Below, piece after piece: positions 10,416-56,777 of a DNA stretch of 64,000 nt; within the stretch, counting starts at the first letter, position 1; each line of letters starts with the position of its first letter. Made by a program: the position numbers and the translations under genes. This stretch comes from Gammaproteobacteria bacterium (GTDB lineage: Bacteria > Pseudomonadota > Gammaproteobacteria > PIWD01), in contig PIWD01000001.1 in the NCBI GenBank assembly GCA_003354005.1, positions 19,489-83,488 of the forward strand. The letters are read 5' to 3'. Under the pieces are notes generated by a model. It was not told the origin of the DNA. It did not search any database and saw only the letters and a list, made by a program, of their open reading frames with translations.

Positions 10416-10919
10416 TTAAGCAGCTCTTTCAATTTCAATGTTGCGAGATTGTTGAGTATGCTCTGCCTTCTTTGGAACATCAATCCAAAGCATACCTTTT
10501 TTAAATGATGCTTTTGCTTTTCCGATATCTACTGAATCAGGTAAAGCAATATTTCGCTCATAGTTGCCATAACTAATTTCACGCATCATGTAATTTTTAC
10601 CTTTATCCTGTTTCGATGTAGTTTTTTCACCCTTGATAGTGAGTACACCATCATGGATAGATACAGCAACATCGTCTTCACCCATCCCCGCCATTTCAGC
10701 GATAATCTTGAAACAATCTTTGTTATCAACAATATCAATAGCAGGTTTGACTGAAAGATTCTCGAAGCAATCTGCTGGAAAATTAAAAGGCTCAAAATTA
10801 CCCTGCCCAATAAAACTACTCATGAGCTTATCAAGCTCTGTTCTAAGGGGAAAAAAAGGATTATCCTGATATTGCACCCTAATAGGAACAGATTTATTTG
10901 AATGTAGTAAGTTTCTCAT
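10416..10919 (-). CDS. Small heat-shock protein, Hsp20/alpha-crystallin family
   Basis: 167 aa; alpha-crystallin-domain pattern (..AEMAGMGEDDVAVSIHDGVLTIKGEK...ISYGNYERNIALP). Confidence 0.7.
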   Translation of the reverse strand: MRNLLHSNKSVPIRVQYQDNPFFPLRTELDKLMSSFIGQGNFEPFNFPADCFENLSVKPAIDIVDNKDCFKIIAEMAGMGEDDVAVSIHDGVLTIKGEKTTSKQDKGKNYMMREISYGNYERNIALPDSVDIGKAKASFKKGMLWIDVPKKAEHTQQSRNIEIERAA

Positions 10920-11047
10920 AGTTAAATCTCCTTTTAAACTAGTGGATCATTGACATCCTCCTCTCCATAAAGAAAGGGGATTGCTATTACTAAGCTGGTT
11001 ATTGGTCGCCCATCACCAGATGTTCCTGCTTCATCGAATCAGCTAAT

Positions 11048-11255
11048 GCCGTCTCTTCACAGGTTAACGCGACACGCCCTGTTGCTGGCCTGTCGCTGGA
11101 ATGAACTGTAACAGCTTAGTGTGAAATAGTCAAGAAATTAGAACAGGTCAGTGCTGTTCATTATGTTTACGTGCATTTATTCTTTGCTACAAAATATGTC
11201 GAAGATCACAAGAGACGCTCGACTAGAAGGGTGCATTGCATCCTCGACCTACCTT
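11048..11255. repeat. Dispersed intergenic repeat, copy B2 (between divergent hsp20 and nuoA)
   Basis: About 80% identical over about 200 bp to 42902-43085; inverted GCCGTCTCTTCACAGG ... CACAAGAGACGCTCG termini. Confidence 0.6.
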
Positions 11256-11325
11256 AACAACGAGCTTGATAAATAAGGTGTGTATAGTAGCTTGAATAAG
11301 TTGTAGAACCTTATATAATGCCCCT

Positions 11326-11685
11326 ATGTTGCTTAAAGAATATCTACCCATTGTTGTTTTTATTGCCCTGGGCATTGGTTTTGGTCTTGTGCCGTTACTC
11401 GCAGGTTTTTTAATCGCGCCTTCTCGACCCAATAAGGCGAAGGAGTCGCCGTATGAGTGCGGTTTTGAAGCCATAGAAACTGGGCGTGCGCCGTTTGATC
11501 TGCGCTTTTATTTGGTTGCTATTTTATTTATTTTATTTGACTTAGAGACGGCTTTTTTATTTCCTTGGGCAGTTTCCTTAAGAAAAATTTCTAGTCTAGG
11601 ATTCTTTAGCATGTTATTTTTTCTAGGCTTATTATTGATTGGCTTCCTTTACGAATGGTGTAAAGGTGCGTTAGAGTGGGAGTAG
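11326..11685 (+). CDS. nuoA: NADH-quinone oxidoreductase subunit A
   Basis: 119 aa, 3 TM, ECGFEA / LFILFD(L)E motifs; first gene of nuo cluster. Confidence 0.85.
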
Positions 11686-11694
11686 CGTGTCACT

Positions 11695-12216
11695 ATGCAA
11701 ACCAATCCGTTGCTGAATGCTGAAGATCAGGTATTTCCAACCAAGGGTGTATTTGTCACCTCGCTTGATTGGCTGATGAAATGGGCGCAGGGTTCTTCTA
11801 TGTGGCCTATGACCTTTGGGTTGTCTTGTTGTGCCGTTGAGATGATGCATGCTGGTGCATCACGTTATGACTTAGACCGCTTTGGACTCTTATTTCGGCC
11901 AAGTCCACGTCAATCAGATGTTATGATTGTTGCAGGCACTCTCTGCAACAAAATGGCACCAGCCTTGCGTAAAGTATATGACCAGATGGCGGAACCACGT
12001 TGGGTGATTTCGATGGGTTCATGTGCAAACGGTGGTGGTTACTATTATTATGCCTATTCCGTCACTCGCGGTTGTGATCGCATTGTACCAGTTGATATTT
12101 ATGTGCCAGGCTGCCCACCGACAGCGGAGGCTCTAGTGTATGGCATAATTCAATTGCAAAACAAAATAAGGCGAAAGTGTGTTATTCAGCGTTACCAGGC
12201 TACAGAAGATCGGTAA
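11695..12216 (+). CDS. nuoB: NADH-quinone oxidoreductase subunit B
   Basis: [24 protein letters not shown] Fe-S (N2) motifs. Confidence 0.9.
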
Positions 12217-40208: not shown

Positions 40209-42896
40209 TTATGCTAGCCCTTTTACGTTTACTGGCTCTATTCCGTTTCCAATGTTATTGTGCTGTATTTGTTGCATAGTGTCTTGACATAGTAGATTAC
40301 TAGCTGGCATGATTCCGTTTTGTGTGCCTTGTGCTTCTTTAGTTACTTCTTCAAAAATTTTCTGTATATTGTATCCCAATCTTCTGTTCAAAATAAATAT
40401 GTTAATGATTGTAAAAATAAGTATACCAATATTACAGCCTGCAACAAGTAGCGTTGGGGACATGCTTATACCCACTAAGATAAATATACCAGTAGAGCAT
40501 ATTAATTCAATGAGAAAGATAAGAAAAAGTAAATTCATAGTGATATTTTGAGTATTTCTAACACATTCTTCTGATCTGATAAGGGATAAGAGATCCTCTA
40601 ATCTTGGCAATTCAAACTCAGCACTACGCAATTTTGGGTTTCCGCCAATAGAGAAACCACATTCTGCCTCATGTATCATACTCTGGTCATTAGAACCATC
40701 ACCTACAGCCCAGACAGTGATAGCATCTTTTTTCAGATTCTTGACAAACTTTCCTTTCTCGGCAGGGGACTGTGAACATAAGGGACTTGGAAACCATAAT
40801 TTATGAAACTCACTAATATTACTATTTTTTTTAGCAGTACAGCTTTGAGGAAGTTTTTTGAAGACTGATCTAAAAAGTTTATTATATGGACTTTCTAGTG
40901 TAAGACTATCAGCACCACTTATTATCTGAACCTTTATGTTATTTTTTATACAATAAATAATGAGTTCTTCAGTAATAACTTTGGTATCTTCAGGGGTAAA
41001 GGAAAAGCTGGTATCTGCTAGTTGCTTAAAATTATCTTCACCTGTAATTTTTTTTGCGACATAGGATTGTTGTTTGTTGCTGTTTTTTGCGATGCAATCT
41101 ATACCATGGTTCCGCATATATTTTGAATTCCCAATAATTATCTCAGTGCCATCTTCGTACCTTCCGTGTACACCACTGCCATAACCTTCATTTTCTATTA
41201 TAGTTGCCTTTTGTTGCTTATACGTGAATTCCTTATCATTCATCTTCTTAAGTAACTCTTTGGAGATTGACATAGCATGTTGGCTTTCCTGTGTGCTTTC
41301 TAATGACAATATTTTTGACACGATGTCAGCATTTAATTTACTACCTATTTTAACATCCTCGGCATAAAGTGAGTTATTTTTTGCCAATGTGCCAGTCCAG
41401 TCAAAGCAGATAGTTTTTTTTCCAGTCCTATTTGTAATAGGAAGGTGTAAGGAATGTATCTCTCTAAACTTCAGGCCAAATTTTCGTAAGACGCTACTAG
41501 CATGGAAAATTGACGAATAAAAACCTACAAATATAGTTGTTGGACAGAAGGCATTAAGGCAAGTAATAATATGAACTAAGATAAAGAACGGCAAGTCTAG
41601 ACAAATACCAACTGTTACAACTATAGCTACCCCTATAAGCAAGGAAATACAAAAAAGATTTGGCCATATTTTTATCAATCCAGACCTTTTATCCTCAGTC
41701 TCAGCAAGTGATCTGTTTTGCTCATCTTTTTTGTTTTTTATGAGCTTATACCCGTTCTTCAATGCCTTGACTGTTATTGTGAAATTTGAGCAATTTTTAG
41801 CACCAAAATATAGTTCTCTACCCAATTGGCAAGCAAACTCCCCAGTTATCCCTGTAACATCTTTATTGTCAATATTACAGCTTATTGTTTCTTTTTCTTC
41901 AAACCTAATTATAGTGGATCTGATGGGAACTTTCTCACCAGGAGAAATATGAAGAATATCATCTTCCTTAATTTTTTTTACAGGTTTCCACATTACTGTT
42001 TTTTGCGAATTTTCTTTACATTCTACTTTTACAAACCGATTGTAATTGGTATATTCCATGTTAAATTTTTCTACTTTCTCTTTTGTACCTGGGTTACTAA
42101 GTGCTGCATCGATGACGAATCCAGCAAGTAGAGCAAAAAGACTGATAAGGGAAGGAATAAAGAAGGGAGTGGTAATGCCAGCTAATAAAAACGGAGTAGG
42201 ATATATGACTACAAAAATTGATACTATAAAAGGTATGAAGACTGTAAGTGCGCCAATGCAGTGAATGCCAGGAGGCTGGATGCCATTTTTTTTTCCTTGG
42301 AATATATTGAGTTCATTGCAAGCCTTTTTAAGGATTGGTAGAGATGTATAGAGGATGATAAGGCTCAAAGGTATCATGATCACAAAATAGCCTGGCATAC
42401 AAAAGAAGCTTGTTAGTAGGGACACCCAATTTAAAGATTCAGCTACTTTTAATAAGGCAATAGATGCGCCTACAAGAAAAGTACTTGTAAGGCTTGATTG
42501 TACTTTCCAATCCTCATAACAATGCAATGCTTCCGAAATTTCAATTTTGGCTTGATAATTATCAGTAGTAAGCAAGTGACCTCCCTTGAACTCAGGAATC
42601 TCACTCTCAGAGTCGATGCGGTAAACTTCTGGAAAGGGAAGCTTTTTTGAATAAGATGGCTTCTGATGTTCTCCAGTGAAATACTCTTTTATCCTGTTAA
42701 AAAAGCTTTTCTCTTCTTCCAATAAGCCGAGTCGTTGTATTTTGTAGTGGTAGCCATTGCCTAGAAAAGTATCTAGCTGAGTACTTACCTTTTTCTCCCC
42801 TATCTCCTTATATTCATACTTTTCATCCGTGGACATGCCACCTGCACCAGATTGGTGTTGAATACAAGAATAATAACTAAAGGTTTTTTGTGTCAT
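40209..42896 (-). CDS. Divergent P-type-ATPase-like membrane protein (TGE, D-W-TGTL, GDGSND motifs) with about 140-aa N-terminal extension
   Basis: 895 aa; TM pairs flanking actuator (ITGEF) and P-domain (CFDWTGTLA ... WAVGDGSNDQSM); CPT in a TM helix; lysine of DKTGT replaced by Trp. Confidence 0.6.
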   Translation of the reverse strand: MTQKTFSYYSCIQHQSGAGGMSTDEKYEYKEIGEKKVSTQLDTFLGNGYHYKIQRLGLLEEEKSFFNRIKEYFTGEHQKPSYSKKLPFPEVYRIDSESEIPEFKGGHLLTTDNYQAKIEISEALHCYEDWKVQSSLTSTFLVGASIALLKVAESLNWVSLLTSFFCMPGYFVIMIPLSLIILYTSLPILKKACNELNIFQGKKNGIQPPGIHCIGALTVFIPFIVSIFVVIYPTPFLLAGITTPFFIPSLISLFALLAGFVIDAALSNPGTKEKVEKFNMEYTNYNRFVKVECKENSQKTVMWKPVKKIKEDDILHISPGEKVPIRSTIIRFEEKETISCNIDNKDVTGITGEFACQLGRELYFGAKNCSNFTITVKALKNGYKLIKNKKDEQNRSLAETEDKRSGLIKIWPNLFCISLLIGVAIVVTVGICLDLPFFILVHIITCLNAFCPTTIFVGFYSSIFHASSVLRKFGLKFREIHSLHLPITNRTGKKTICFDWTGTLAKNNSLYAEDVKIGSKLNADIVSKILSLESTQESQHAMSISKELLKKMNDKEFTYKQQKATIIENEGYGSGVHGRYEDGTEIIIGNSKYMRNHGIDCIAKNSNKQQSYVAKKITGEDNFKQLADTSFSFTPEDTKVITEELIIYCIKNNIKVQIISGADSLTLESPYNKLFRSVFKKLPQSCTAKKNSNISEFHKLWFPSPLCSQSPAEKGKFVKNLKKDAITVWAVGDGSNDQSMIHEAECGFSIGGNPKLRSAEFELPRLEDLLSLIRSEECVRNTQNITMNLLFLIFLIELICSTGIFILVGISMSPTLLVAGCNIGILIFTIINIFILNRRLGYNIQKIFEEVTKEAQGTQNGIMPASNLLCQDTMQQIQHNNIGNGIEPVNVKGLA

Positions 42897-42901
42897 AAAC
42901 A

Positions 42902-43085
42902 GCCGTCCAAGTCTTGAATTAATCTACGAACGCTGAAGTGTACTGCTACTCTGTGAGAATGTCAAGAAATATTTGAACAGGCAGACACTGCTTATTAAAT
43001 ATGCACGTGCATTTGATACTTGTTACAAAATACCGAAGATTACAAGAGAGGCTCGACTGATGGGGTATCTCGTATCACCCACATC
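42902..43085. repeat. Dispersed intergenic repeat, copy B3 (between ATPase-like gene start and nadA end)
   Basis: About 80% identical to 11048-11255 including GTCAAGAAAT...GAACAGG and GATTACAAGAGAGGCTCGACT. Confidence 0.6.
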
Positions 43086-43187
43086 AAGGAAGTAGTTTTA
43101 CTACACATACGATAAAACTGACTTATTTCAGCCATAGCCTAAAGTTGGAAGTTTCGTTATTTGTGGTAAATGACACTAAAATCTTTG

Positions 43188-46410: not shown

Positions 46411-47910
46411 GTGGTAAGACAAGAGGCTTTTTATTTCAGTTGTGGTAGTTGGGATGGTGTAATGGATATTAGTTATTTCTTTAGTAGGGTGTTTCTTGTA
46501 CTGAGGTCTGTAAGTGATGCGCTTGCTACTTTAGTTCGCATGATCATTTTTGCACTTCTTACTCTTGCGATTCCAGTAGGTTTTGGAGTCGTTCTTGGGT
46601 TGACAGTAGGGCTTGGCTTTAGTATGTTATTTTATGTGTTTGATGTGCTATTTATCTGGAAGCTATATAGAGTCAATAGACTCTTTCCTATTGTTCTTGG
46701 TTATCCTAGAGCCCTCTCTCTTATCTCTTTAGTGTTTTTACATTTTGCTAGAGCATTGGGGTTCTGCTCAGAAATAGCATTTGTTTTTGCCCTTCTATAT
46801 ACCTCCAAGCTAATCATTTTCTATCTACTATGCCTAGCCGTATCGGCATGTGTTGGTTTGTTTGTGGGCACATTTTTAGGTATAGTTGTTTTTGCTTGTA
46901 TTTATAGAGAATATAGTGCATTAACTTTGGTCATTCCTCTTGTCTTATTCGCAGTTTTCATTTTTTTAATTTTCTTGTCACTATACTTTTCCTTTACTGG
47001 TTCAATTTTTGCTGTGAAATTGTGTGTGGGTTTCTGCTTTATTGTGTTTATCATTGAATGTAAGAAGTGTAAAATGTATTTACGGCATGCGTTATCTCTT
47101 GATTTTTGGTATGTAATACGTGAAATTCTACTTGGTGCCAGGGCTATTGAGTTATGGGCCGAGTTCTTGGGTTCAGGTCTTGTAGTTAGTAATATAGGCA
47201 GTAATAATAACGTGTTGAAAAATCTGTTGCTGGTAATGGATTCAGATGAAGATTTACAGTCTCTTCAATTAGTTACTTCAGATCAATTAGAGCAATTAGA
47301 TCAATTAGATCGATTAGAGCAATTAGAGCAATTAGAGAAGGAAATTCGATGTGGAATTTTACATGAGTTGCCAGATGCTCCTGTTAGAACAGGAGCTATG
47401 GTAGCTGTGTGTGGTTTAGAGTCTCTTATTAGGTGGTGTAGAGAGAAGGTTGACAGTGATGCTGCCATTAATGCTCCCATTATGGGAGCTTCTTTAGCAC
47501 TGCAAAAAATATACGTAGGCTACGGAATGGAAACTGTCAACTCTTTTTTTGATATTATTGAGAGTGATCAGGAGATACGTGGTATTTTAGGCATTGGAGA
47601 AGGAGTGAATAAAAATACATTCTGTAATAACTACATTAAAAAACGAAATGCTGTACAAAGAAAGATTAATGCTATACAAGGGGAGTTAATGGATGATGAA
47701 CAGATTGAAGAGCAAGAGCAAGGAGTAATAGTTGAGATAGAAAGTGAATACTGCCTTAATTTTCTTCAACAACAGGATCTCGCCCAGGAGGGATTTCAGC
47801 CCATTGCTGTACGCCCCCAGCCAGACATTGTACAGCAGTTCATTGATGTGGAAGTGCCTGCTGGGGGGCTTCCTAGTTTGCATTTAGGTGCTAGCTCTTA
47901 TTGGAGCTAA
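46411..47910 (+). CDS. Hypothetical polytopic membrane protein with C-terminal coiled-coil/acidic soluble domain; contains in-frame 9-bp tandem repeat
   Basis: About 230 aa of TM helices, then LEQLDQLDRLEQLEQLEKE encoded by (CAATTAGAG/T)n at about 47285-47340; start codon uncertain. Confidence 0.5.
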   Translation: MVRQEAFYFSCGSWDGVMDISYFFSRVFLVLRSVSDALATLVRMIIFALLTLAIPVGFGVVLGLTVGLGFSMLFYVFDVLFIWKLYRVNRLFPIVLGYPRALSLISLVFLHFARALGFCSEIAFVFALLYTSKLIIFYLLCLAVSACVGLFVGTFLGIVVFACIYREYSALTLVIPLVLFAVFIFLIFLSLYFSFTGSIFAVKLCVGFCFIVFIIECKKCKMYLRHALSLDFWYVIREILLGARAIELWAEFLGSGLVVSNIGSNNNVLKNLLLVMDSDEDLQSLQLVTSDQLEQLDQLDRLEQLEQLEKEIRCGILHELPDAPVRTGAMVAVCGLESLIRWCREKVDSDAAINAPIMGASLALQKIYVGYGMETVNSFFDIIESDQEIRGILGIGEGVNKNTFCNNYIKKRNAVQRKINAIQGELMDDEQIEEQEQGVIVEIESEYCLNFLQQQDLAQEGFQPIAVRPQPDIVQQFIDVEVPAGGLPSLHLGASSYWS

Positions 47911-50451: not shown

Positions 50452-50500
50452 TTTTTGTATTGCACCCTTGCAGTATCTATAGTCAATAAGTAAATTACTG

Positions 50501-50530
50501 GGAACAGCCAGCCTGTTCCAATATTTCTTG
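50501..50530 (+). terminator. Rho-independent terminator candidate after thiDE
   Basis: GGAACAG-CCAGC-CTGTTCC hairpin followed by AATATTTCTT. Confidence 0.5.
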
Positions 50531-50802
50531 ACATTCTCGTAGAGCAACAGTACACTCTAGATATGAGAATGAGGAAATCGTACGAATTTAGGATAAAGCC
50601 GAGTGCTGAGCAGGTCGCTCAACTAGGTCGGTTTTCGGTTTGTTGTCGCTTTGTTTGGAACAGGGTCACTTTAGTGGCTGGGCTACCGTGTTAGTCTGTG
50701 GAGAAGATGGTTGGCATCAGGTTTCCCTACAAACGAGTGATCTAGTAGTGACCTGAATCTCTATTCAGGAATCGCCTTCCTTTAGTGGGGGGGAGGATGT
50801 CA
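50527..50802 (+). mobile_element. Miniature IS200/IS605-family (TnpB-only type) derivative, copy 2
   Basis: TTGACA-N17-TACACT at 50528-50556; mini-ORF 50563-50694 MRMRKSYEFRIKPSAEQVAQLGRFSVCCRFVWNRV... = TnpB N-terminal HTH signature (YxFRxxPxxEQ...GxxRFVxN); 3' part conserved with copy 1. Confidence 0.65.
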
Positions 50803-50808
50803 ATTATC

Positions 50809-54172: not shown

Positions 54173-54253
54173 GCACCTATTCAAGCTCAAAGCACAACAC
54201 TCCCATTTATTTTAAACATAAACATAGGTTCAGCAAGCCTATTATATCGAAAG

Positions 54254-54330
54254 GTAGTTGTAATCAGACATCTACGGGTCGTAAGAGTCCATTACTAGAA
54301 CAATTAGCGACTGTTTATCGGAGGGGGGAG
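54254..54330. repeat. Dispersed intergenic repeat, copy B4 (Y-module)
   Basis: GTAGTTGTAATCAGACATCTACGGGTCGTAAGAG...CTAGAACA.TTAG matches the reverse complement of 10160-10234. Confidence 0.55.
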
Positions 54331-54436
54331 TACGTCACGATTGGTTAGCAGAAAGGTTGTAGTGTTTGACTACGGTATTGTGTGTAAGGTGTCAATCTTT
54401 ATGATAGTGACCTCAGTCTGAAGTAGTGGAGATAGC

Positions 54437-56020: not shown

Positions 56021-56143
56021 ATGAGACGATTTGTCAAAATAGGTGAAGCAGCAAGGCTTTTGGGCTCAAATTCCTCGATATTCAGAAAGTGGGAGTCAAC
56101 AGGGGAGCTGCAACATGCAAAAAACAAGAAATTTCCCAGATAA
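56021..56143 (+). pseudogene. Truncated MerR/AlpA-type HTH (excisionase or IS607-TnpA N-terminus-like) ORF remnant
   Basis: 40-aa ORF MRRFVKIGEAARLLGSNSSIFRKWESTGELQHAKNKKFPR*: I.EAA.LLG.S...(I/L).RW...G.(L/F)P pattern of phage Xis/AlpA HTH; ends before the expected C-terminal wing. Confidence 0.4.
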
Positions 56144-56303
56144 TTAAAAAAATAGTAATGTGACAAAATATGGCGTGGAGTTAGCATGCATGGGGGACGA
56201 TGAACCTGTCGATTTTTATACGAACTGATTAATAGTTAGACTCCCTTCATTTAGTTTTTGAAATATGCCAAATTTTTCCTTGCAAAGTGTAAATTATTTG
56301 TAA

Positions 56304-56777
56304 TTGGGTGAGGGATGGGACTTCCTAGTGGTGTGTCTCACTATTTTGGCATTTATGTTTAATGAAGTTTATGCGGTATTTAAAAATATGTTTGGAAAGA
56401 AAAAGAATAATAATAAGAATAATAAGAATAATAAGAATAAGAAGGATGAGGTTGCTGAGGCTAATGCTAGGGCTAAGAAGGCTGAGGCTAAGGCTAATGT
56501 TGCTGCACCTAAGAGTAGTAAGACCTGGAAAGCAAGTATTCTTGGTATGCTTAGGACATTGTCACTTGGGGAATGGAGCGCATGGATACTAATGCATGTG
56601 CTTTACAAATCATCGGTGCTTATACTTATTGCAGTTACACTTATCATTGCTGCACTTTTTATGTCACCAGGGGCTGTGGTATTCATAGTACCGGCTTTCT
56701 TTGCTATAGTGGGTGGCGTTGTACTGCTCGTCTGGATAGGCAACTGTATGCACAATATTGTTGGGGGGGAAGGCTGA
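56304..56777 (+). CDS. Hypothetical small membrane protein with Lys/Asn-rich low-complexity N-terminal region
   Basis: 157 aa; KKKNNNKNNKNNKNKK encoded by (AATAATAAG)n-like repeat at about 56400-56440; KAEAKAN; two C-terminal TM helices. Confidence 0.4.
   Translation: MGEGWDFLVVCLTILAFMFNEVYAVFKNMFGKKKNNNKNNKNNKNKKDEVAEANARAKKAEAKANVAAPKSSKTWKASILGMLRTLSLGEWSAWILMHVLYKSSVLILIAVTLIIAALFMSPGAVVFIVPAFFAIVGGVVLLVWIGNCMHNIVGGEG

Follow-up and report, generated by a model that had tools for sequence, protein, structure and literature searches.

Intergenic repeats in a gammaproteobacterial contig, very probably the relics of an IS200/IS605-family insertion sequence, carry predicted tnpB promoters that face host genes

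Two intergenic regions of the 64-kb window, by which we mean the whole stretch of DNA that was analysed, share a direct repeat: copy A lies between the divergent genes hsp20 and nuoA, and copy B precedes an ATPase-like open reading frame (Table 1). A first-pass annotation had described this repeat as about 200 bp long and about 80% identical. The similarity is significant, with a local alignment score of 86 compared to 18.6 ± 2.3 (maximum 29) in shuffles (n = 300) and, according to blastn, 75.5% identity over 110 columns (E = 3.5e-12), but the alignable core, which has the same plus-strand orientation in both copies, comprises only about 112 bp at 75-80% identity. The remainder of the intervals originally assigned is not homologous; their left parts (11048-11119 and 42902-42951) give no mutual alignment, and 11048-11119 in copy A is a fragment of a tnpB 3' end. 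Each of the shared blocks that had been listed, GTCAAGAAAT..GAACAGG, ACGTGCATTT, TACAAAATA and CGAAGAT.ACAAGAGA.GCTCGACT, was found in both copies. Further copies had been overlooked, namely a partial third one of the distal block at 10075-10115 and those of the promoter core at 50511-50556 and 29540-29569. These belong to copy C, which begins right after the stop codon of the gene at 8013-10076, to copy D, upstream of ileS, and to copy E, upstream of ftsK.

Table 1. Features of the repeat copies in the window, and right-end tips of the relics and of annotated elements
Feature	Position	Strand	Sequence or remark	Basis
Copy A, repeat core	11120..11231	.		Local alignment and blastn vs copy B
Copy B, repeat core	42952..43064	.		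Local alignment and blastn vs copy A
Copy A, tnpA pseudogene fragment	11126..11276	+		DNA homology to copy B; frame analysis
Copy B, tnpA pseudogene fragment	42959..43095	+		tblastn with Klebsiella and Vibrio casei TnpA; repaired-peptide alignment
Copy C, third tnpA fragment	10075..10150	+	ITRDAHPAVHLAPLST...	Repeat family D11; 21-nt pattern; nhmmer; translation
Copy D, tnpA 5' remnant, heavily decayed	50452..50534	-	MSRNIGTG... then diverged	Sequence reading; weak
Possible fourth tnpA fragment, heavily decayed, weak	27804..27861	-	RYCSFSVHAHLVFV	nhmmer with A/B model; tblastn
Copy A, predicted tnpB promoter	11105..11133	-	TTGACT-17-TACAGT; faces hsp20 (ATG 10919)	Promoter scan
Copy B, predicted tnpB promoter	42937..42965	-	TTGACA-17-TACACT (10/12); faces 895-aa ATPase-like ORF (ATG 42896)	Promoter scan
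Copy D, predicted promoter	50528-50556	+	TTGACA-17-TACACT; before ileS	Sequence comparison
Copy E, predicted promoter		+	TTGACG-17-TATACT; before ftsK	Sequence comparison
Copy A, tnpB 3'-end fragment and right end	10950..11079	-		nhmmer; Vibrio casei tnpB alignment; plasmid tip matches
Copy D, internally deleted tnpB element	50528..50803	+	Upstream of ileS	Pfam; NCBIfam; plasmid tblastn; right-end matches
Copy E, same deleted tnpB element	29541..29829	+	Upstream of ftsK	DNA identity to D; Pfam
Right-end tip, Klebsiella			GGAATCCCCGTCCTTTAGGGCGGGGAGGATGTCAAT	
Right-end tip, Methylobacter			GGAATCCCCATCCTTTAGGGTGGGGAGGATGTCAAT	
Right-end tip, Vibrio casei			GGAATCCCCCTGCGACTTAGCAGGGGGAGGATGTCAA	
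Right-end tip, copy D			GGAATCGCCTTCCTTTAGTGGGGGGGAGGATGTCAA	
Right-end tip, copy E			GGAATCACCTTCCTTCAGGGAGGCGAGGATGTCAA	
Right-end tip, copy A			GCAATCCCCTTTCTTTATGGAGAGGAGGATGTCAA	

Read on the plus strand, the block shared by copies A and B is a pseudogene fragment, broken by a stop codon and frameshifts, of the first 30-50 or so codons of the Y1 transposase gene tnpA. In copy B the reading frame starts at the ATG at 42959, encodes S-R-N-I after the initiator, meets an in-frame TGA at codon 6 (42974-42976), continues as TGRHCLLNMHVHLILVTKYRR and, after a frameshift near 43037, ends as KITREARLMGYLVSPTSRK*. Two independent annotated TnpA proteins, those of Klebsiella (starting with MELTYRAGRHCIFMLHCHLIFITKYRG) and Vibrio casei (starting with (V/M)SEEFNKGRHSCYSLHLHLVFVTKYRRK), were used as tblastn queries, and the best match of both in the whole window is copy B at 42980-43039 (63% of 19 amino acids, E = 2.4e-5, and 60% of 20 amino acids, E = 8e-5). 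With the stop repaired to Gly, as in copy D, the copy B peptide is 52% identical to residues 1-29 of the Vibrio TnpA (E = 1e-10, a pairwise E-value). Copy A has ATA in place of the ATG as well as several frameshifts, and reads ..TGQCC.. / ..VHLFFATKY.. and then KITRDARLEGCIASSTYLNNELDK*. Its direct match to TnpA is weak (residues 12-25, E = 0.004-4.6), and it is assigned to tnpA because its DNA is homologous to that of copy B. Past TKYR the two copies read KITR(D/E)ARL(E/M)G... only if a one-base frameshift is assumed; this second half of the fragment (KITRDARLEG...) would be TnpA by its collinearity with KVFGDLHLQS.. after the assumed frameshift, although it is too diverged for proof.

The other tnpA remnants are shorter or more decayed, and Pfam alone does not recognise the short tnpA fragments. 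The distal block of copy C matches a 21-nt degenerate pattern exactly, where 0 chance matches are expected, and the copy has an nhmmer E-value of 0.018. The remnant in copy D runs collinear with copy B over its first 8 codons and has weak support otherwise. A possible fourth fragment is suggested by nhmmer with the A/B model (E = 0.002) and by tblastn with the Vibrio TnpA (E = 0.34).

The minus strand of the same block carries a predicted sigma-70-like promoter of tnpB, TTGACW-17-TACASW (W = A or T, S = C or G), with predicted transcription starts near 11098 in copy A and near 42930 in copy B. Consensus matches are about as many in shuffled sequence, and a hit of the promoter scan is to be read as a pattern and not as proof of activity. 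Copies A, B, D and E differ in their spacer sequences but agree in spacer length (17 nt), in the -35 TTGAC and in positions T1, A2, A4 and T6 of the -10. According to a sensitive self-BLAST, 42937-42982 of copy B is 89% identical over 46 nt to 50556-50511 of copy D and 87% identical to 29569-29540 of copy E, and the pattern of the proximal block, GTCAAGAAAT-N4-GAACAGG, has an exact match on the opposite strand at 50512-50532. The -35 (TTGACAT) overlaps CAT, the reverse complement of the tnpA ATG, and the gap between tnpA and tnpB is therefore about 28 nt. In copies D and E the tnpB ATG follows the -10 by 6 nt, which implies a leaderless tnpB mRNA. Two other readings of this stretch were considered and rejected: GTCAAGAAAT as half of a GacA/LetA box, which consists of tnpA codons 1-4 plus the -35, and the block upstream of the -35 as the left end of an insertion sequence beside a TTGAT target motif, which is tnpA coding sequence.

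Copies D and E show what lay downstream of this promoter. Their DNA is 77% identical over 292 columns (50527-50803 and 29540-29829; self-BLAST E = 8.6e-58). Copy D encodes a TnpB N-terminus, MRMRKSYEFRIKPSAEQVAQLGRFSVCCRFVWN, from the ATG at 50563, followed by the deletion and by a right end that finishes at 50803; copy E encodes MKIRKVYKFRIRSGAEQVAQLG*FSGCCRFV from the ATG at 29576, with an internal stop, has a right end finishing at 29829 and lacks a tnpA side. The TnpB N-terminal domain HTH_OrfB_IS605 (Pfam PF12323, cut-off 21 bits) is recognised in copy D with 42.8 bits (E = 3.7e-11) and in copy E with 29 bits, and both peptides match NCBIfam IS200_TnpB. A tblastn search of plasmids with a 35-aa TnpB peptide matched 1213 records, and most of the 25 plasmid matches listed are annotated as TnpB or transposase; a protein search with a 40-aa TnpB peptide returned no candidates. 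The reading frame breaks after about 35 codons and gives way to sequence resembling the 3' end of annotated tnpB genes plus the right end, this 3' part matching tnpB 3' ends and right ends on plasmids of Klebsiella, Methylobacter, Xylella and Polaromonas. Copies D and E are therefore tnpB elements that have lost their interior. They had also been considered as a miniature inverted-repeat element (MITE) with the terminal repeats TTGACATTCTC and GAGGATGTCAA, of which the left one is the tnpB -35 and the right one the right-end tip.

The same right end is found in front of hsp20. The last 40 or so nucleotides of the D/E unit recur at 10945-10989, nhmmer with the D/E model detects the tnpB 3'-end fragment and right end of copy A with an E-value of 4.8e-7, and the right end finishes in ...GGAGGATGTCAA at 10950, 31 nt before the hsp20 ATG; its tip matches plasmid sequences. 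Positions 11022-11068 are 83% identical (39/47, z = 17 compared to shuffles) to the 3' end of the Vibrio casei tnpB, whose last codons, GHRLLACGESALAA*, have GRVALTCEETALAD as their counterpart in copy A. Followed along the minus strand from 11276 to 10950, copy A thus consists of an antisense tnpA fragment, the tnpB promoter, a junction of about 25 nt, the tnpB 3' block and the right end, an order and orientation collinear with annotated divergent tnpA-tnpB elements. The copies differ in what they keep: copy A has the 5' end of tnpA, the promoter, about 14 final tnpB codons and the right end; copy B has the 5' end of tnpA and the promoter, with no significant tnpB coding remnant; copies D and E have 35 codons of tnpB as well as the promoter and the right end. 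In intact elements the guide-RNA scaffold is encoded by the tnpB 3' end together with the right end.

In the annotated elements of Klebsiella, Vibrio casei and V. alginolyticus, tnpA and tnpB are divergent and 46-64 bp apart. The Vibrio casei plasmid NZ_AP018682.1 has tnpA at 10326-10736 on the minus strand and tnpB at 10801-11979 on the plus strand, and the Klebsiella pneumoniae plasmid NZ_CP084987.1 has them at 114399-114809 (minus) and 114856-115947 (plus). Given this arrangement, the DNA upstream of the tnpB promoter is expected to hold the start of tnpA on the opposite strand, and this is what was found. The relics share with the Vibrio casei and Klebsiella insertion sequences the gene order, the orientation and a short divergent spacer, recognisably similar N-termini of TnpA (MS...GRH....H.HL...TKYRRK) and TnpB (..RK.YKFR..P...Q...L......RFVWN), and the tnpB 3' end with the tip GGAATC....hairpin....GGAGGATGTCAA. 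On the other hand, the window copies are fragmentary: tnpA is cut after about 30-50 codons and contains stops and frameshifts, tnpB is reduced to 0-35 N-terminal and about 14 C-terminal codons, there is no left end and the right-end hairpin has decayed. Their spacer is also shorter, at about 28 nt, and the promoter sequence is dissimilar to the spacers of the annotated elements.

We consider it very likely that the repeat is a molecular fossil of the central control region between tnpA and tnpB of an insertion sequence that belonged to the IS200/IS605 family and had the IS605-type layout. The ancestral element would have been ordered as left end, tnpA pointing left, tnpB pointing right and right end, and each copy would have lost most of it. 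Of the hallmarks of the family, the Y1 (HUH) TnpA is present as a fragment only, the HUH and catalytic Tyr motifs lying beyond the truncation; tnpB with the OrfB_IS605 N-terminal domain is present in copies D and E; and a right end overlapping the tnpB 3' end is recognised by sequence similarity in copies A, D and E, with a decayed hairpin. Elements of this family are further marked by insertion beside a specific short motif without duplication of the target site. No hairpin-bearing left end was detected beside the tnpA fragments of copies A and B by nhmmer with the right-end and F-repeat models, and an end-like repeat (10150-10280) follows copy C only. The missing left end is consistent with truncated relics and not with complete elements.

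In four annotated insertion sequences the right-end hairpin has a perfect 9-bp stem with paired changes between elements and a folding energy (as DNA) of -6.0 to -10.9 kcal/mol, compared to -1.8 to -2.1 kcal/mol in copies A, D and E, which is no better than in shuffles. IS200/IS605 elements have subterminal palindromic left and right ends that form hairpins, and TnpA moves single strands (PMC8612924); the RNA that TnpB uses is about 150 nt long and stems from the right end and the 3' part of tnpB, with about 16 nt of flanking DNA serving as guide (PMC8612924). With no left end and with decayed right-end hairpins the copies are therefore immobile relics, and no intact tnpA or tnpB was found within the window. 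The proposal that they are mobile elements carrying a promoter holds as far as the IS200/IS605 origin and the outward-facing tnpB promoter before hsp20 and the ATPase-like gene are concerned; as for mobility, the copies are fossils. They resemble in part the palindrome-associated transposable elements (PATEs), gene-less IS200/IS605 derivatives that have both ends and are mobilised in trans (PMC10055086, PMC3119063), in that they are internally deleted, intergenic derivatives which kept the right end with its guide-RNA region. Unlike PATEs, which have functional left and right hairpins, copies A, B, D and E have no recognisable left end and degraded right-end hairpins, and we therefore regard them as relics and not as mobilisable PATEs.

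Relatives of this particular insertion sequence are distant. The 21-nt degenerate pattern of the distal block had 0 matches in genome contigs and a 23-nt pattern of the promoter core had 0 matches in metagenomes and viral contigs; these pattern scans and the protein search revealed no close full-length relative. The best right-end matches, in Klebsiella and Methylobacter, carry a differently worded TnpB N-terminus, which bears on the exact subgroup. The host lineage likewise has no close relatives in the collections searched: its proteins are singletons at 90% identity, the nearest NuoA is 65% identical with unrelated relatives, and hsp20 homologues reach at most 63% identity at loci that are not syntenic.

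How do other explanations of the repeat compare with that of an IS fossil? The first-pass annotation had pointed to imperfect inverted termini, and a still-mobile, non-autonomous MITE some 200 bp long, with terminal inverted repeats at its ends, would account for the dispersal of the copies in intergenic DNA. In copy A, however, the only exact inverted match has 8 bp (AAGAGACG, 11050-11057 on the minus and 11210-11217 on the plus strand), which is below the 9-nt threshold of our inverted-repeat scan, and the same scan (minimum 9 nt) found no such pair in copy B and no significant terminal inverted repeats at either copy. The supposed left terminus, GCCGTCTCTTCACA, corresponds in reverse complement to codons C-E-E-T-A of the copy A tnpB remnant, and the right one, CACAAGAGACGCTC, represents tnpA codons 27-31 or so and is unrelated to the tnpB-derived left arm. 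The match is a chance 8-mer, and its arms sit in remnants of two different genes, the C-terminus of tnpB and tnpA. Moreover, copies A and B show no homology next to the supposed left terminus, and the core has different flanks from copy to copy. The copies thus do not fit the definition of a MITE, whose terminal inverted repeats are flanked by target-site duplications and whose copies have the same boundaries. Since the ends of IS200/IS605 elements are hairpins and not terminal inverted repeats (PMC8612924), and the right-end hairpin has decayed with no left end detected, we regard a mobile MITE as exceedingly improbable. About equally improbable are two paralogous genes for small RNAs that would be read on the plus strand from TGNTACAAAATA, a conserved motif resembling an extended -10. 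Hairpins, differing in sequence, do follow the ACAAGAGASGCTC block in copies A, B and C, but the motif represents the TnpA codons (A/V)-Thr-Lys-Tyr. Past the block a terminator-like site on the plus strand is missing in copy B, and copy A offers only a hairpin internal to tnpA. Copy C has no such promoter at all and starts after a stop codon. At gathering thresholds Rfam 15 reports nothing but two tRNAs in the whole window, and searches of both repeat regions with E up to 10 gave chance-level matches only, with no family for the suggested sRNA module.

A cis-regulatory module for the joint control of hsp20/nuoA and the ATPase-like gene had been suggested as well. Such a dedicated module, which could be a region bound by a transcription factor, we judge unlikely, though somewhat less so than the two foregoing explanations. 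Both copies do lie in 5' regions, the promoter hexamers are conserved, and an inverted repeat, GAACAG-N7-CTGTTC, is placed just upstream of the -35 in copy A, with variants in copies B and D. This small inverted repeat, however, falls in tnpA codons 6-12, and tnpA coding sequence together with the tnpB promoter accounts for the whole block, whose 110 or so bp at 75-80% identity far exceed the needs of an operator. A co-regulatory module is made unlikely also by the presence of this promoter core before ileS and ftsK, which are functionally unrelated. Nor does the repeat serve nuoA, which has its own promoter candidate, TTGAAT-16-TATAAT (11292-11319, promoter scan), outside the relic; the repeat is therefore not a shared control element of hsp20 and nuoA.

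All four relic promoters of copies A, B, D and E face a host gene, namely hsp20, the ATPase-like ORF, ileS and ftsK. If still active, a relic tnpB promoter of the sigma-70 type would read into the adjacent gene. In front of hsp20 the 31 nt between the end of the relic and the ATG hold a ribosome-binding site only, and because the relic ends so close to the ATG and the upstream gene nuoA is divergent, transcription of hsp20 must start inside IS-derived DNA. The start would be at TTGACT-17-TACAGT, giving a leader of about 180 nt, or at another site within the relic. To judge from this arrangement, hsp20 probably depends on the relic promoter and would thus have a promoter of transposon origin. 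In copy B 40 nt separate the promoter from the annotated ATG of the ATPase-like ORF. Instead of using the relic promoter, ileS and ftsK could be transcribed by read-through from upstream genes of the same orientation.

Promoter donation by mobile DNA is known from the outward-facing promoters of insertion sequences and from the Correia elements of Neisseria. The relics are similar in that sequence from a mobile element puts a sigma-70-type promoter directly before host genes; they differ in that the promoter is an internal one, that of tnpB, which was bared by deletion and is neither hybrid nor terminal, and in that its use by the host is putative. Could the host have taken over more than the promoter? 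In such a takeover the tnpB promoter would drive hsp20, the ATPase-like gene, ileS and ftsK, and TnpB or a nuclease-dead TnpB-like protein, encoded elsewhere in the genome, would bind the guide-RNA scaffold remnants that are joined to the 5' leaders of hsp20, ileS and ftsK. We hold this to be very unlikely; if true, it would amount to RNA-guided control of housekeeping and stress genes.

The relics represent a known kind of object, remains of an IS200/IS605-family element, in a new lineage. With about five clear relics (copies A to E) and two possible ones in 64 kb, the findings point to a burst of one IS family in the past and to its later decay by deletion, in a lineage without close sequenced relatives. 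For annotation this means that several conspicuous intergenic repeats of the window, namely those of copies A and B, those before ileS and ftsK and that after the gene at 8013-10076, are debris of one IS200/IS605-type element, and that it would be an error to take such relics for sRNAs, riboswitch-like leaders or regulons. As nothing but IS-derived sequence precedes the ribosome-binding site of hsp20, this gene may represent a small example of promoter capture.

A potential hairpin, read by eye at approximately codons 35-41, is found in all three tnpA fragments: those of copies A and B, which are IS200/IS605 relics that include a tnpA 5' fragment and the tnpB promoter, and copy C, a tnpA fragment directly after the stop codon of gene 8013-10076. 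By the same reading, the stem sequences are not the same among the three.

Potential hairpins in the tnpA fragments, read by eye
Fragment	Coordinates	Stem
A	11227-11241	GGGTGC/GCATCC
B	43060-43086	GGGGTAT/ATCACCC
C	10096-10118	GTGCA/TGCAC

Fragment C is followed by one copy of a repeat pair, 10150-10280 (-) and 54209-54334 (+), with 72-82% identity and features like those of IS200/IS605 ends (AATCAG...CTAGAA...GGGGGGAG.ACGTCA). The second copy is located between lspA and a comM-like gene, and downstream of it, at approximately 54390-54400, lies AAGGTGTCAAT, which is similar to the tip of the IS200/IS605 right end. This copy and AAGGTGTCAAT may form a mini-element of a related IS. A possible fourth tnpA relic, at 27804-27861, adjoins a short upstream sequence (25802-25843 and 27863-27902) common to two tandem paralogues. 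The DNA identity of the two paralogues is approximately 70%; the first occupies 25915-27786, and the second appears to be split into 27901-28926 and 29047-29544.

Copy B is flanked by a 17-nt inverted repeat (42880-42896, AAGGTTTTTTGTGTCAT, and 43170-43186, ATGACACTAAAATCTTT; 82% complementary). One arm lies over the start position annotated for the ATPase-like ORF, and the second is found shortly before the end of nadA; this arrangement is possibly due to chance. The ORF itself (40209-42896 (-), 895 aa), a singleton when clustered at 90% identity, retains the P-type-ATPase-like motifs DWTGTL and GDGSND. The ATG given in its annotation adjoins the IS relic, and the true start may instead be an internal methionine, residue 21, which is placed downstream of AGGTGG.

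Another repeat pair in the window, 185 bp long with 86% identity, is present in opposite orientation at 56119-56299 and 62618-62801, immediately 5' of ORFs that start at 56304 (+) and 62600 (-). Both copies were without a match in Rfam. Within the pair are TAAGAAATTTCTCA / CAAGAAATTTCCCA, similar to the GacA/LetA-type box known 5' of Rsm-family sRNAs; a few GGA motifs come after them. Internal tandem repeats were seen in two ORFs: a 919-aa ORF (3055-5814 (-)) consists mostly of repeats of 117-129 nt, and the gene at 46411-47910 contains a row of TCAATTAGA-like 9-nt repeats at 47265-47336.

The right-end tip of copy E, an internally deleted tnpB element upstream of ftsK, contains the ATG of an 8-codon mini-ORF (MSNREFFQ*, 29821-29849). 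The mini-ORF ends in ATGA, overlapping the start codon of ftsK (29846), which is without an obvious Shine-Dalgarno sequence; translational coupling of the two is possible. For nuoA, a promoter near consensus (TTGAAT-16-TATAAT; 11292-11319) ends 6 nt upstream of the ATG (11326), and a Shine-Dalgarno sequence is missing, which together suggest a leaderless mRNA. In the relic elements, the tnpA start codon and the tnpB -35 overlap on opposite strands. Because the tnpB ATG is located 6 nt past the -10 hexamer (50551-50563 and 29564-29576), the ancestral tnpB mRNA would be leaderless.
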